Source of the DNA: Raja brachyura
Lineage: Eukaryota
Reading direction: 5' to 3'
DNA: 64,000 nt
Assembly (NCBI GenBank): GCA_963514005.1
Contig: OY740802.1
Location: 44,516,001 to 44,580,000, forward strand
A program made the translations under genes and the position numbers. The notes below the pieces were generated by a model, which worked only from the letters and a program-made list of their open reading frames with translations, made no database searches and had not been told where the DNA came from. Positions 2,631 through 64,000 of the stretch are shown here, in pieces. Each line of letters opens with the position of its first letter. Positions within the stretch are counted from its first letter, which is position 1.

Positions 2631-3541
2631 TGAATCTACTGGCGATTGTGATCCTGTCCCGAGGAAAGTGCGGTCTCTCCAAATGCATCACTCGTTATCT
2701 GGTGGCTATGGCGACGGCGGACCTCACGGTGATTGTCTGCGAAGTGATTTTAAATCGGATTGCCGTTGTTTATTGGCGGAACACATTCCTGTACTTCACT
2801 CCTGTGTGCAGGTGTATTCTCTTCATCTCCGCCGCGGCCGTAGACTGTTCCGTTTGGTTCACGGTCGCTTTCACCTTTGATAGGTTTGCGGCCATCTCCA
2901 AACAGAATCTGAGATCCAGATACTGCACCGACAGAACCGCGGCGGTGGTTATGGTGACCCTATGTACCTTCTTCTGTTTACAGAACGTTCCCTGGCCTTT
3001 CGCTTATAATCCTTTGCTCAAGCATAATGGTTTACTGTGGGGTTGCCGAATCCGATCGGATTTCTATCACCTGCCCGCATGGATCGCATTTTCTTGGACC
3101 GAGCCGTTGTTGACCCCAGTGATTCCATTCTGTTTGATTTTGTTCTTTAATGCGCACACGGCGAGACGTATTTTAATGGCCAATCGGGTCCGCAGGAGAC
3201 TCCGCGATCTCAGTCGTGGAGACCCGGAGACGGAAAGCCGTAAACGGTCCATAATATTACTCTTTGCAATCTCCAGCAGCTTTATCCTGCTCTGGGTCAC
3301 AACTGTATCTCATTTTGTTTACTATCGATGTGTCATTGGAACTTGGGTGCGAGGTTTCACAAACCCACATGCAAAATTTGAAAAAATTGGAGTTCTGCTG
3401 CAGCTGCTGAACACCTGTACAAACACACTGATTTACACAGTCACCCAGGGGAAGTTCAGAGAGCAGCTCCTTCACGCACTTCAATGGCCCGTCGCGCTGA
3501 CTGGAAAGTTAATGAAACGTAACAAATCATGTTTAAAATGA
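2631..3541 (+). CDS. Class A GPCR, GPR139/GPR142-like; large terminal coding exon (copy 1, intact). First exon not located
   Basis: 303-codon open frame with hydrophobic helices, TM1 Asn, TM2 ADL, TM3 Cys and TFDRF, ECL2 Cys, TM7 NTLIY. Preceded by a polypyrimidine tract and AG at 2629-2630 (phase 1), so the ORF-track GTG is not a true start. Family name is from recall, not a search. Confidence 0.88.
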
Positions 3542-4796
3542 CATCAGGTACTAAGTCTTCCCGAGTGTGACTTTATGGGTCGATGGTTTAGAGGGAGCAT
3601 TGAACGAAAATCTCACCTATCTTTCCAAAACATTTCAAAAAATTGTCACTCATGTTTCGGCGGCTCCACCCAGACCCGTCGCCTGCCCTTTAAAATGAAC
3701 ACCGCCGGTTTCCCTGTTGCTTTGCGGGTCGGGCGGTCGGCGGGGACCCGATGGTCATTCTTCCGGAGCGGACGTCCAGTATTTCCAGTTGAAAATTTCC
3801 GCGACATCTCTGGTTTCCTTTCAATCCAGCGGCCGCCTCATTCGGCTCTAAATGCCAAACCACTAAGTTTCCCGATGCGTTCCATGTCCTTCACACTTTA
3901 ATTCTTCGAAACACTCCGTGATTACTCATGTGGGTGCCCAACTCACAAATTTACTTGATAACATTAAAGTAGAATGCGTCTCCCACATTCCAGCAGCAAC
4001 ATTCAACTAAACGGGAGTTTCATTATATTCTTGGTGCTCCCTTTCACCAGAACCCGTTATTCCCATTTAGAGGCGCTTTCGGATTACATTACACTAAGCA
4101 GCAGATGGAAGTAACGAGAATGGCTGATGTTCATACAAGCCAGCGTAGCTACATAATCAATATTTTTAGAAGAAGGAGATACTGACATTCTACGGACTTT
4201 ACCGCGGTAACGTGCAGAGATACGATTGATGTGCAGAAAATCTGACGGTTTGTGCACCTAAATGCCCCATCTCTCATGTAGAGGTTTGCTCTATCGCTGT
4301 CTCTTTTCTGCTGAAAGGATACTGTCTGGCTACATAGCACATTCTTCAAATATTTTTGCAATATTACACGTTACATTTGAACATTCAAATTCAGGAACCA
4401 ATTGTGGACCAGATTGACGAATCCTGACAGAGTCTCACGACATTCACATAACACCTGGAAACAAATGACGCGTGGTTCTGTGAGGTATTGTCAGCATTTT
4501 GCCAGTGACACAGGGTAAGTTATCTTCCAAGAGTCCAGACTGTTTTATTATCCTCTGTTCTAAATGAACAATGAAAAGCGTACTCACAGCACCACAACAG
4601 ACAAGTAAACATCGCACTGTGCAAAACAAAACAGAATATAAAACAATGCCGCCCCTCCACACGCCATCCACCAACCCCAAACGAAACTGTTCTACCGACT
4701 CCACATCTCTCCAGTAGAATTCTCAAGTGCATATTTATCTGCAGTTGACTCAATTGACTTACGTAACATCTAATGAGACTTTGACCAGTAATAGAG

Positions 4797-5322
4797 AATA
4801 GACAATAGACAATAGGTACAGGAGGAGGCCATTCGGCCTGTCGAGCCAACACCGCCATTCAATGTGATCATGGCTGATCATCCCCAATCATTACCCCGTT
4901 CCTGCCTTCTCCCCATAACCCCTAACTCCGCTATCGTTAAGAGCCCGATCTCGCTCTCGCTTGAAAATCTTCACAGAACCGGCCTCCACAGCGCTCTGGG
5001 GCAGAGAATTCCACAGACTCACTATTCTCTGCGTGAAAAAGTTTCCCCGTCTCCGTTCTGAATGGCCTACCCCTTATTCTTAAACCGTGGGCCCCTGATT
5101 CTTTACTCCCCCAACATCGGTAACATGTTCCCTGCCTCGAGCGTTTTCAAAGCCTTACAAAACGCATGTTTCAATAACATCCCGTCTCATCTTTCTAAAT
5201 TCCAGAGTACGCAAGCCCATCTGCTCCATTCTCCTAGCATATGACAGCCCCGCCATCCCGGGAATTAGCCTTACGTGGCACTCCGTCAATAGCAAGAATG
5301 TCATTCCTCAAATTATGGGACC
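4797..5322 (-). mobile_element. CR1/HER1-type LINE 3' end
   Basis: Reverse complement of the 3' UTR seen at 750-1060; caataga-type tail repeats. Confidence 0.85.
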
Positions 5323-5920
5323 TGTAATGATAGGACTCCTGTCTTGGAGTTACATTGTAATGTTATTTCCAACTTCATTATCAATAGTTTTTGAAATGTG
5401 TTCCACGAGATGCCGATTTACATTAAACCGTGACTTCCGGAAGGAAGCGGCCGCTCTCGCAGAATATGTTCCAGATTAGCTGTTCGTTCGTTTTGACATG
5501 CTCTGCAAGGTCGCGTTAAACAGCTCGCAGAACTCATATTACATAGGAATTAAAAGCCCATGACAGACATGTGGCTTTTTCTCTTGTTATCAATTAAACA
5601 CATATGTAATATTTAAGGTAATGTTTATATTGTGATCAATCTCTTTATCTCAGGAGGTTGCAGGCAGTTCCTTGTGACAAAAGAAAACGAATTTACAGCT
5701 CTTAATGGAAATTGTGGAATTTTCCCTGAATCGTTGACAAATGTTCATTTCAATATCGATTCAAATTGACTTGTTCGATGTTCCCTTTGACATTAAAGAC
5801 TAAAGTCTGCTCAACACTAAATATCTAATCTTGTTCTCCGAGTGTTCCTCTCACTGTTGTCGTACAATGGATGGGCGTTTATCAGTGTTCAGGATTGTAT
5901 TGGTTGAATACATTGGTTGA

Positions 5921-6340
5921 ATAGGTCTTTATTCTTTGGAGCGCAGAAGGTTAAGGGGGGACTTGATTGAAGTCTTTAGAATGATGAAAGGGATAGACAG
6001 AGTTGACGTGGATAAGCTTTTCCCATTGAGGGTAGGGAAGATTCAAACAAGAGGGCATGACATGAGAATTAAGGGACAGAAGTTTAGGGGTAACATGAGG
6101 GTAGAACTTCTTTACTCAAAGAGTGGTGGCTGTGTGGAATGATCTTCCTGCAGAAGTGGTGGAAGCAGGATCGATTTTAACATTTAAAAGTAAAGTGGAT
6201 AGGTATATGGACGGGAAGGGAATGGAGGGGTATGGTCTGAGTGCAGGTAGATGGTACTAGGGGGAAATGAATGGTCGGCACGGACTGGAAGGGTCGAGAA
6301 GGCCTGTTTCCGTGCTGTAAGTGGTATATGGTTATATAGT
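5921..6340 (+). mobile_element. CR1-type LINE 3' end
   Basis: LERRRLRGDLIEVFRMMKG...TRGH motif; empty paralogous site at ~38830. Confidence 0.85.
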
Positions 6341-62600: not shown

Positions 62601-62619
62601 ACAATAGTCCTTCTACTCA

Positions 62620-63000
62620 TGGTTCTGGAGCTCCCGCGGAAAAAGCTGTGTCCACTGGACTGGAAGGCGGCAGCTTCGGCAGCTTCCATCAGCCCGGGCT
62701 GCGGAGTTGAACCAGCCCGTTTGCGGAGCGCGGTTCAGCCCCGGGACTTATTTACATCATCCGGTGCGGTCACATCATAGGAGGACCGGGTCGCCTCAGC
62801 GCAGAGGAAGAGGAAGAACAAGAAGGGAAGAGACAAAGACTTAAGTTTTTTGCCTTCCATCACAGTGAGGAGGTGTCTGGTGAACTAACTGTGGTGGATG
62901 TTAAATATGTGTTTATTGTGTGTTTTGCTCTTTACTATATGTATGACTGTCGGCAGCAAATTCTGGTCAGACCGAAAGATGTGAATGACAATAAAAGTTT
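62620..63000 (+). mobile_element. Non-coding retroposon 3' part (family of 16540/24201/50276)
   Basis: gccttccatcacagtgagg...ctgtggtggatgtt...gaatgacaataaa. Confidence 0.68.
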
Positions 63001-63149
63001 TCCTGTCCCTATAATGTCTTAACTCATCAAATCATTTGTGTTGCTGTTGATACACCTCTAGGCCAGTATCTGGCCAAGATGTATTGTCTTCAGTTCCTCC
63101 TGTGGAACCGGTCTTCTGGCCACAGTATTCTTAAACTGTGAGCACTGGT

Positions 63150-64000
63150 GTGAAACGTCACCTATTCCTTTTCTCCAGAGATCCTGTCTCACTCGCTGAG
63201 TTACTGGAAGCGTTTTGTGTCTGCATTCGATCCTCAGTTTGACGTTAAGTTAAAAAATAAAACGCATGGCGACCAGCACAATGCACACCACTCCTCGATA
63301 CTTCTCACCAGACCGATTACCAAAGGCAGTAAAACATCTTTACCCAGGAGTCAAGGCCTCACGTTCAAAAAGCCAAAGCAACTTGCGGCTCAGCACGGTT
63401 GCGAGCTATTTTCAATGACACGTACAGCAATTCCCCTTTGAACTCTAACACTACCAAATTTATCTTGCGTCGCCAATAACCATCCACACCCATTCAGCTT
63501 ATGTGCTCCGCTGAAGCATCTCTACTTCCTTCTCCCCACCAACATACCAACACCTCCGTTGTTTGTGCACATGGACTCTAGATATCGGCCGCGTGGTTGA
63601 AATAGCCGGCCCCAAACGCGGATCTCTGTGACATCTCATCAATCTTACCCTGCCAATCGGATCAAGTTCAATCAGTGCAATTATTTCCTCTCTGTCCTTC
63701 TGCGCACGGACGTTAGAGAAATAGTGTAAAAAGAGGCCCTTCCGCCCACCGAGATCGTACCCAGCGATCACCTCGTATACTTACACTATCCGACACACTA
63801 GGGAAATGGCAAATTTACATAAATCAATTAATCTACGAACCTGTACGTCTTTGGATTGCATTTGAATGGAATGGGATGGAATGGAATGCTTTATTGTCAC
63901 ATTTGACAAGGACTAGGGAGAAGGCACAAACTCCATACAGACCGCACCGTAGTTGGGATCGAACCCGCGTCTCTGGTGCCATAAGGGAGCAGCTCTACAG
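63150..64000 (+). repeat. Paralog of 8773-9640, including pLTR remnant and HE1-like SINE (63710-64000, - strand)
   Basis: Colinear unique sequence and the same atggaatgggatggaatggaatgc insert inside the SINE. Confidence 0.88.

Follow-up and report, generated by a model that had tools for sequence, protein, structure and literature searches.

A clustered skate receptor gene and its dead relatives point to a large, GPR139-labelled multigene family in elasmobranchs

The receptor locus

The subject of this analysis is a 64-kb stretch of the genome of the skate Raja brachyura (64,000 nt; contig OY740802.1 of assembly GCA_963514005.1, positions 44,516,001 to 44,580,000; hereafter, the window), which contains one intact gene for a G-protein-coupled receptor (GPCR) and three defective relatives, here numbered copies 1 to 4 in order of position (Table 1). 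The related units were found by self-BLAST and tblastn within the window, and chance cannot account for the alignments between them (865 bp, 89% identity, BLAST E 0.0). A preliminary description of this DNA had listed four copies of one unit in four states: intact, disrupted, inverted and truncated, and exon-deleted. All four copies and all four states were recovered, with some corrections. The cluster is really made of three paralogous units and one copy of a dead gene (copy 3), and the intact copy has a first exon outside the coordinates given earlier, upstream of the start assigned at position 2631.

The two exons of copy 1 form an unbroken 326-aa frame. The best database matches of the product are two Amblyraja radiata proteins, both of 326 aa (90% and 88% identity), which sit on one 131-Mb contig. 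Because these proteins match copy 1 with exon 1 included (21 of 23 residues identical in P0001, 19 of 23 in the other), the gene model is independently supported. The protein falls into class A (rhodopsin-like) of the GPCRs: it has a 7tm_1 domain (E 7.6e-17; PF00001 is the sole Pfam match at E<=0.001), seven helices, D2.50, D-R3.50 as part of a DRF motif, W6.48 and N7.49-Y7.53, together with C3.25 and the cysteine of extracellular loop 2 (ECL2). The AlphaFold2 model of exon 2 is a seven-helix bundle followed by helix 8, with a predicted local distance difference test score (pLDDT) of 75.6. P6.50 and P7.50 are absent despite class A membership. The best explanation of these data is that copy 1 is a predicted functional member of a class A GPCR family amplified in elasmobranchs.

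Copy 2 is a pseudogene. Its exon 2 contains in-frame deletions of 15 and 6 nt, a 592-nt insertion, a Trp-to-stop change and frameshifts, and comparison with copy 1 (27.7 changes per 666 nonsynonymous sites, 10.3 per 210 synonymous sites) gives a ratio of nonsynonymous to synonymous changes per site (pN/pS) of 0.84. The insertion and the 5' end of the retroelement in the copy 4 intron are homologous (local score 157, compared with a maximum of 80 in 100 shuffles). The insertion also supplies an ATG in frame with the remainder of the receptor from transmembrane helix (TM) 5 to TM6, and the resulting chimeric open frame (23124-23750, plus strand) is probably incidental. An exon-1 search of the window matched only positions 1475 and 54116, and no exon 1 was found there for copy 2 or copy 3. 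The segment 35153-40043 was considered as a separate exon-less copy and rejected, as it continues the flank of copy 2.

The deletions and the insertion of copy 2 are also present in copy 3, which has one further 1-nt deletion; copy 3 therefore duplicated an already dead gene. An independent gene birth was rejected for it, the lesions being common to both copies. The inverted segment that carries copy 3 also holds inverted copies of 37245-40043 and 41497-42455, and the 3' flank of copy 2 picks up again at 35153, past this segment. Between copies 2 and 3, 7 of 1240 sites differ in the core and 267 of 4240 in the flanks (p 3e-22), an imbalance that suggests gene conversion or homogenisation during assembly. 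A gap of 134 N beside copy 3 falls on an (ATT)n microsatellite, both sides of which are in register with the flank of copy 2; the gap is therefore not a join of unrelated contigs, and a scaffolding artefact is disfavoured as the source of copy 3. The 0.6%-diverged core may still have been homogenised during assembly.

Copy 4 has kept exon 1, and no exon 2 was found for it by tblastn in the window. Homology to the downstream flank returns at 63152, which implies a loss of about 6 kb, exon 2 included. The region in place of exon 2 (60499-62250) resembles by eye a decayed gag fragment of a long terminal repeat (LTR) retrotransposon on the minus strand. The element in the copy 4 intron matches a reverse transcriptase (RT) domain (RVT_1, E 8e-8) and, below the cut-off, Phage_int_SAM_4 (E 0.005), and is putatively DIRS-like. 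Divergence between copies 1 and 4 is 16-23% near exon 1 (53925-54657) and only 11-12% in the 3' part of the intron and the downstream flank (60355-64000); this uneven divergence suggests mosaic ancestry.

Copies 1 and 2 differ less at synonymous sites (10 of 210) than in their flanks (184 of 1352; p 1e-4), and nine amino-acid sites join them against both Amblyraja paralogues, with none favouring either alternative grouping. The coding sequence has thus been homogenised within the species alongside birth-and-death. The turnover with pseudogenes proposed in the preliminary description is borne out, and gene conversion has to be added to it. Locally, the transposon-rich DNA would drive duplication, insertion, deletion and gene conversion.

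Table 1. Receptor copies and associated features of the window (positions from its first nucleotide)
Feature	Position	Strand	Description
TATAAA box-like site	1394..1399	+	81 nt 5' of the copy 1 ATG; copy 4 counterpart at 54035
Copy 1 exon 1	1475..1544	+	23 codons and 1 nt; starts with ATG; short N-terminus and first half of TM1
Copy 1 intron	1545..2630	+	1086 nt; GT...AG (GT donor at 1545); phase 1
Copy 1 exon 2	2631..3541	+	Rest of TM1 to helix 8 and stop; reading frame intact
Copy 1 3' flank	3542..9640	+	Pieces common to copies 2, 3 and 4, interleaved with retroelement remnants
Copy 2, pseudogene	22156..24193	+	3' intron and exon 2 (22464-23942), the latter disrupted by deletions, an insertion, a stop and frameshifts
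Insertion in copy 2 exon 2	22986..23577	+	592 nt, in TM5/intracellular loop 3 (ICL3); ends in a 13-nt target duplication
Inverted duplicated segment	24790..34850	-	About 10 kb; inserted into a split interspersed repeat in the copy 2 3' flank
Copy 3	32663..34846	-	Inverted and truncated duplicate of pseudogene copy 2; exon 2 runs from 33539 to 33019 and is followed by part of the copy 2 insertion
Continuation of copy 2 3' flank	35153..40043	+	13.6% diverged from the copy 1 flank (184/1352 sites)
Copy 4	53925..60498	+	Upstream region, exon 1 (54116-54185) and intron pieces
Decayed retroelement in copy 4 intron	54662..60354	+	RT and integrase-like frames; nested pieces of long interspersed nuclear elements (LINEs)
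Copy 4 3' flank	63152..64000	+	11% diverged from copy 1 8843-9640; alternatively a low-copy repeat

Size and spread of the family

A protein search with copy 1 retrieved 2197 matches (90% clusters) at E<=1e-10 among 3605 candidates. The family is expanded, as had been proposed, and is not limited to a few copies. Counts for named species rest on the best 120 of the 2197 matches and are lower bounds. Among these 120, 119 are named, all from 15 elasmobranch species (hand count); Heterodontus francisci contributes 48, Heptranchias perlo 32 and Pristiophorus japonicus 12. The Heterodontus matches are spread over 18 scaffolds, with 15 on one 74-Mb scaffold (hand count). Clustering at 50% left 107 representatives at E<=1e-30, many of which are fragments. 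The family has the clustered multigene pattern, with pseudogenes and lineage-specific copies, that is seen in chemosensory-type repertoires. It does not belong to the OR, TAAR, V1R, V2R or T2R families: PF00001 alone was matched at E<=0.001, and none of these families is represented among the named best matches.

NCBI labels 118 of the 119 named matches as 'probable' or 'putative' GPR139. Elasmobranchs possess a large and apparently undescribed multigene receptor clade, the genes of which are already in the NCBI annotation under a misleading name. No publication describing this expansion was found in literature searches, most subscription journals being outside their coverage. Term searches found no mention of the family in the main text of PMC11979771 and PMC10620051, and a review of GPR139 (PMC12208981) never mentions sharks. 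The family goes unnamed in section 9 of the Squalomix preprint, which treats tandem clusters; the figures or supplements of that preprint could name it. Mentions are likewise absent from the searched supplement files of PMC11372145, PMC8455134 (12 of 24 files), PMC10115646, PMC12361510, PMC10787021 and PMC6504862.

Placement relative to GPR139

A profile of 39 family sequences has human GPR139 as its best match in the PDB (5e-18; next 1e-11), and the matches after it include CCR5 and CCR2 (E about 1e-11). Copy 1 as a single sequence (phmmer) matched no PDB chain at E<=1e-5. With GPR139 as the nearest characterised receptor and with TM3 and TM7 motifs in common, the family belongs to the supergroup that unites GPR139/GPR142 with the MIP/FMRFamide receptors. 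The short GPR139 TM3 motif occurs in none of 266 collected proteins.

Two low-copy vertebrate orphan lineages, also automatically labelled GPR139, were found in the tail of the 50%-cluster search. The first (P0240, P0385-P0401, P0404, P0405 and P0420) comprises a single entry per species for 20 amphibians, plus one from sturgeon (8000 candidates scored); no publication on it was found in the literature searched. The second (P0237, P0245 and P0267-P0384) has members in coelacanth, sharks, sturgeon, teleosts, amphibians, turtles and squamates; the named matches in the best 120 of 145 include neither mammals nor birds. This lineage may be GPR210A or B. Two of its entries are named 'transmembrane protein 183A isoform', which suggests a TMEM183A neighbour. 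Further relatives are P0252, P0265 and P0263; the last has a long ICL3 and is the best-scoring against human GPR139 (7e-28).

An IQ-TREE tree was built from 68 hand-picked rows (67 of 460 collected proteins and copy 1), with true GPR139 and GPR142 left out. In this tree the elasmobranch expansion forms one side of a branch supported at 96/93, in agreement with a quick tree, and groups with the amphibian/sturgeon gene (100/99), apart from the other orphan clade (100/100). The amphibian/sturgeon orphan, labelled GPR139 yet distant from it, is the sister group of the expansion in this tree. The subfamily of the window (100/100) splits into a shark branch (96/83) and a batoid branch (100/97) and therefore predates the shark-batoid split. 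Copy 1 is nested in the multigene elasmobranch clade of this tree, which holds no real GPR139 or GPR142, and does not group 1:1 with a single-copy gene, as a GPR139 orthologue would.

Ligand pocket and site rates

The residues of GPR139 needed for the action of Trp, Phe and agonists include F3x33, H5x43, W6x48 and N7x38 (parts of PMC5430874), and R6x51 is also needed (parts of PMC12775434). At 3x33, 5x43, 6x48, 6x51 and 7x38 copy 1 has A, E, W, T and V, and thus keeps one of the five. Among the best 120 family members, one residue is kept by 85, two by 33 and three by 2. In contrast to copy 1, all 20 amphibian members of the P0240 clade keep four of the five, with K counted for R at 6x51; a separate alignment agrees on their residues at 3x33, 6x48, 6x51 and 7x38. 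The amphibian/sturgeon orphan is a candidate aromatic amino-acid receptor. In the second orphan lineage, one residue is kept by 46 of 47 sequences. The term 'GPR139-like' of the preliminary description holds in so far as GPR139 is the nearest human receptor; the sister of the family is the single-copy amphibian/sturgeon orphan, and the pocket is largely replaced in copy 1.

Site rates were compared among 35 generic class A pocket positions (with assumed TM4 numbering), 125 other TM positions and 28 positions of the G-protein face. The family sample consists of the 120 best matches of the query. Its tree-aware relative rates are 1.39 in the pocket, 0.58 at other TM sites and 0.18 at the G-protein face, so that pocket sites evolve 2.4 times faster than other TM sites (p 5.6e-6). 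In both controls the pocket is slower: for the second orphan lineage (its 47 top-ranked sequences) the respective rates are 0.43, 0.74 and 0.30 (p 0.0045), and for the amphibian gene (20 sequences, sturgeon excluded) they are 0.34, 0.81 and 0.36 (p 0.003). Column identity gives the same direction at matched overall divergence (0.62 vs 0.63). The combination of a variable pocket and a nearly fixed G-protein face, as in chemosensory-type repertoires, is thus found across the family, though not within the subfamily of the window, and suits a set of receptors in which many ligands are read via one pathway. Between copy 1 and Amblyraja P0001, 14 of 48 extracellular-loop positions differ, compared with 10 of 223 TM and intracellular-loop positions (p 3e-6); extracellular loops are variable in single-copy receptors as well.

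A possible role of the family

On balance, we favour the explanation that the elasmobranch family would be a ligand-detection repertoire with one signalling output and diversified pockets, derived from one orphan of the GPR139/GPR142 group. Its source would be a single orphan receptor of that group in the ancestral jawed vertebrate, present today as one gene per species in amphibians and also in sturgeon. The ancestor would have bound aromatic amino acids or peptides with an aromatic end, a kind of ligand that PMC8557429 proposes for the supergroup. The duplicates would have kept one signalling output, for which Gq is a guess from GPR139, and their pockets would have drifted or been selected toward new ligands. 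Such a repertoire would detect amino-acid derivatives or short peptides, external or microbial.

We infer a sensory or immune role for the family. Chemosensory or barrier tissue (nose, taste, skin, gut) has close to an even chance of being the site of action, and immune cells are a distinctly less probable site. Genes of the OR, TAAR and V1R families are very few in cartilaginous fishes, for all their reputed keen smell (parts of PMC10116579). A more speculative possibility, which we regard as less likely than not, is that the family is an unrecognised set of elasmobranch chemoreceptors, tens to more than 100 genes in size. An amino-acid or peptide receptor of the GPR139 group would have been recruited independently as its source; its members would act in sensory cells of the olfactory or taste organs or the skin, and would make up for the very small OR, TAAR and V1R repertoires.

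Several observations weigh against the repertoire explanation. P6.50 is missing across the family, which is unusual for an active class A receptor. The 49 matches listed by Foldseek are generic peptide receptors with a template modelling score of about 0.6 to 0.67, with no GPR139 among them, and are of no help in placing the family. The tree lacks true GPR139 and GPR142 and has some long outgroup branches. In the window subfamily (35 sequences) variability in the pocket does not exceed that at other TM sites (0.70 vs 0.73, P 0.28), and the family rate sample was drawn from the best matches of the query. The fast pocket may reflect relaxed constraint instead of selection, two causes that protein-only data cannot separate. 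No expression or ligand evidence for the family was found in the literature and supplements searched. No GPCR appears among the top 50 genes of a catshark brain-and-olfactory library (PMC11979771), and V2R/OlfC dominate olfactory receptor expression (PMC10116579); the family is not seen to be tested in the parts of these two papers that bear on the point.

Immune or barrier sentinel receptors, FPR- or MRGPR-like, that would sense microbial or damage peptides in leukocytes or epithelia are a rather unlikely alternative to the ligand-detection repertoire as framed above. The variable pocket, fast turnover and gene conversion suit pathogen-driven evolution as well as smell, and the presence of CCR5 and CCR2 among the profile matches would agree with it; however, these chemokine-receptor matches fall short of the GPR139 match by 6 to 7 orders of magnitude and are interspersed with those to other peptide receptors. 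Four supplementary files of a shark immune single-cell atlas hold no mention of the family, although their gene identifiers may hide the name.

Improbable, in our judgement, is a mostly neutral amplification in unstable, transposon-rich DNA, in which a few members would be endocrine or neural and the rest redundant, with a relaxed pocket. Three of the four copies in the window are dead, one of them a duplicate of a dead gene; the pN/pS of copy 2, the insertions and repeats at breakpoints and the many fragments among the 50%-cluster representatives fit such a process as well. It does not readily account for the relative rate of 0.18 that the G-protein face has across 120 sequences, nor for the shark and batoid branches, which indicate subfamilies retained since before the split.

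That copy 1 is the skate orthologue of GPR139 (or GPR142) or its recent duplicate, a brain sensor of Trp and Phe, is scarcely credible: the NCBI naming, the top place of human GPR139 among solved structures and the two exons of both genes (parts of PMC7318219) agree with it, but copy 1 alone has no PDB match at E<=1e-5 while zebrafish GPR139 is 70% identical to human (same source), two other vertebrate orphan clades match human GPR139 equally well or better, and orthology is disfavoured because the identity, pocket and single-copy tests all failed.

A large class A family with a diversifying pocket, filed under an automatic 'probable GPR139' label, is a concrete candidate for an overlooked sensory or immune repertoire. 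Its co-orthologue in amphibians is single-copy and has a GPR139-like pocket, which makes it useful as a control for the ancestral state and an easy receptor with which to begin deorphanisation. Whether or not the family is sensory, many of the entries that databases call 'GPR139' in sharks, amphibians and fishes are not GPR139.

Other repeats in the window

A putative Penelope-like element on the minus strand at 43458-44978 has an open RT frame of 437 codons and, after it, a GIY-YIG-like tail; older copies of the element are found at 6460-7465, 29914-30838 and 38942-39853. A GC-rich tandem array of 34- to 48-nt units lies inside an interspersed repeat, about 900 bp long, that occurs at 50276-51185, at 24206-24790 plus 34853-35132, and at 62755-62998; the second of these copies is split by the inverted segment. 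About 360 bp at 47897-48256 are self-complementary (78% identity to their own reverse complement), possibly a miniature inverted-repeat transposable element (MITE). Two 96-bp copies of a short repeat (31915-32010 and 43084-43179) are 99% identical, far closer than the other copies of the element. No Rfam matches were found in the window.

Comparison with known systems

Lineage-specific GPCR expansion is an already known kind of system; an elasmobranch expansion with a repertoire-like signature and a single-copy co-orthologue is apparently undescribed. In humans, GPR139 and GPR142 are receptors for Trp and Phe; L-Trp and L-Phe activate GPR139 via Gq, and it is expressed in the habenula. The elasmobranch family resembles GPR139/GPR142 in its best solved-structure sequence match, a W3.41-type TM3 motif, W6.48 and the TM7 N-x-x-x-Y motif without P7.50. 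The intron position of copy 1 is presumably the same as in GPR139, also a two-exon gene. Unlike GPR139/GPR142, to which its similarity is remote, the family is multi-copy and lacks P6.50; moreover, GPR139 has Asp at 3.25, whereas the skate gene keeps C3.25 and the ECL2 cysteine (count from the family-profile alignment). The amphibian/sturgeon orphan has the ICL3 DPEM motif in common with the expansion and differs from it in having one entry per species in 20 amphibians, a conserved pocket and P6.50.

Rinne et al. 2019 (parts of PMC6504862) described the orphans GPR210A/B of coelacanth, gar and teleosts and put them next to GPR139/GPR142. They are likewise non-mammalian and may match the P0237 or the P0252/P0265 clades; in contrast to the elasmobranch family they are low-copy, and the genomes named in those parts of the paper include no cartilaginous fish. 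The protostome receptors for MIP/sex peptide, proctolin, myosuppressin, FMRFamide and RGWamide form the sister supergroup of GPR139/GPR142, and their ligands are peptides with an aromatic C-terminus (parts of PMC8557429). The atlas look-alikes of the elasmobranch family include FMRFamide receptor-like and Srw-carrying clusters. Unlike the elasmobranch family, these protostome proteins are conserved invertebrate neuropeptide receptors, and they are far more distant from it than the vertebrate orphans are.

By sequence, the elasmobranch family is a member of none of the OR, TAAR, V1R/ORA, V2R/OlfC, FPR and MRGPR families (Pfam 7tm_1 only). Those families evolve by clusters, pseudogenes, lineage-specific copies and a variable pocket, and the elasmobranch family is like them in each of these features.

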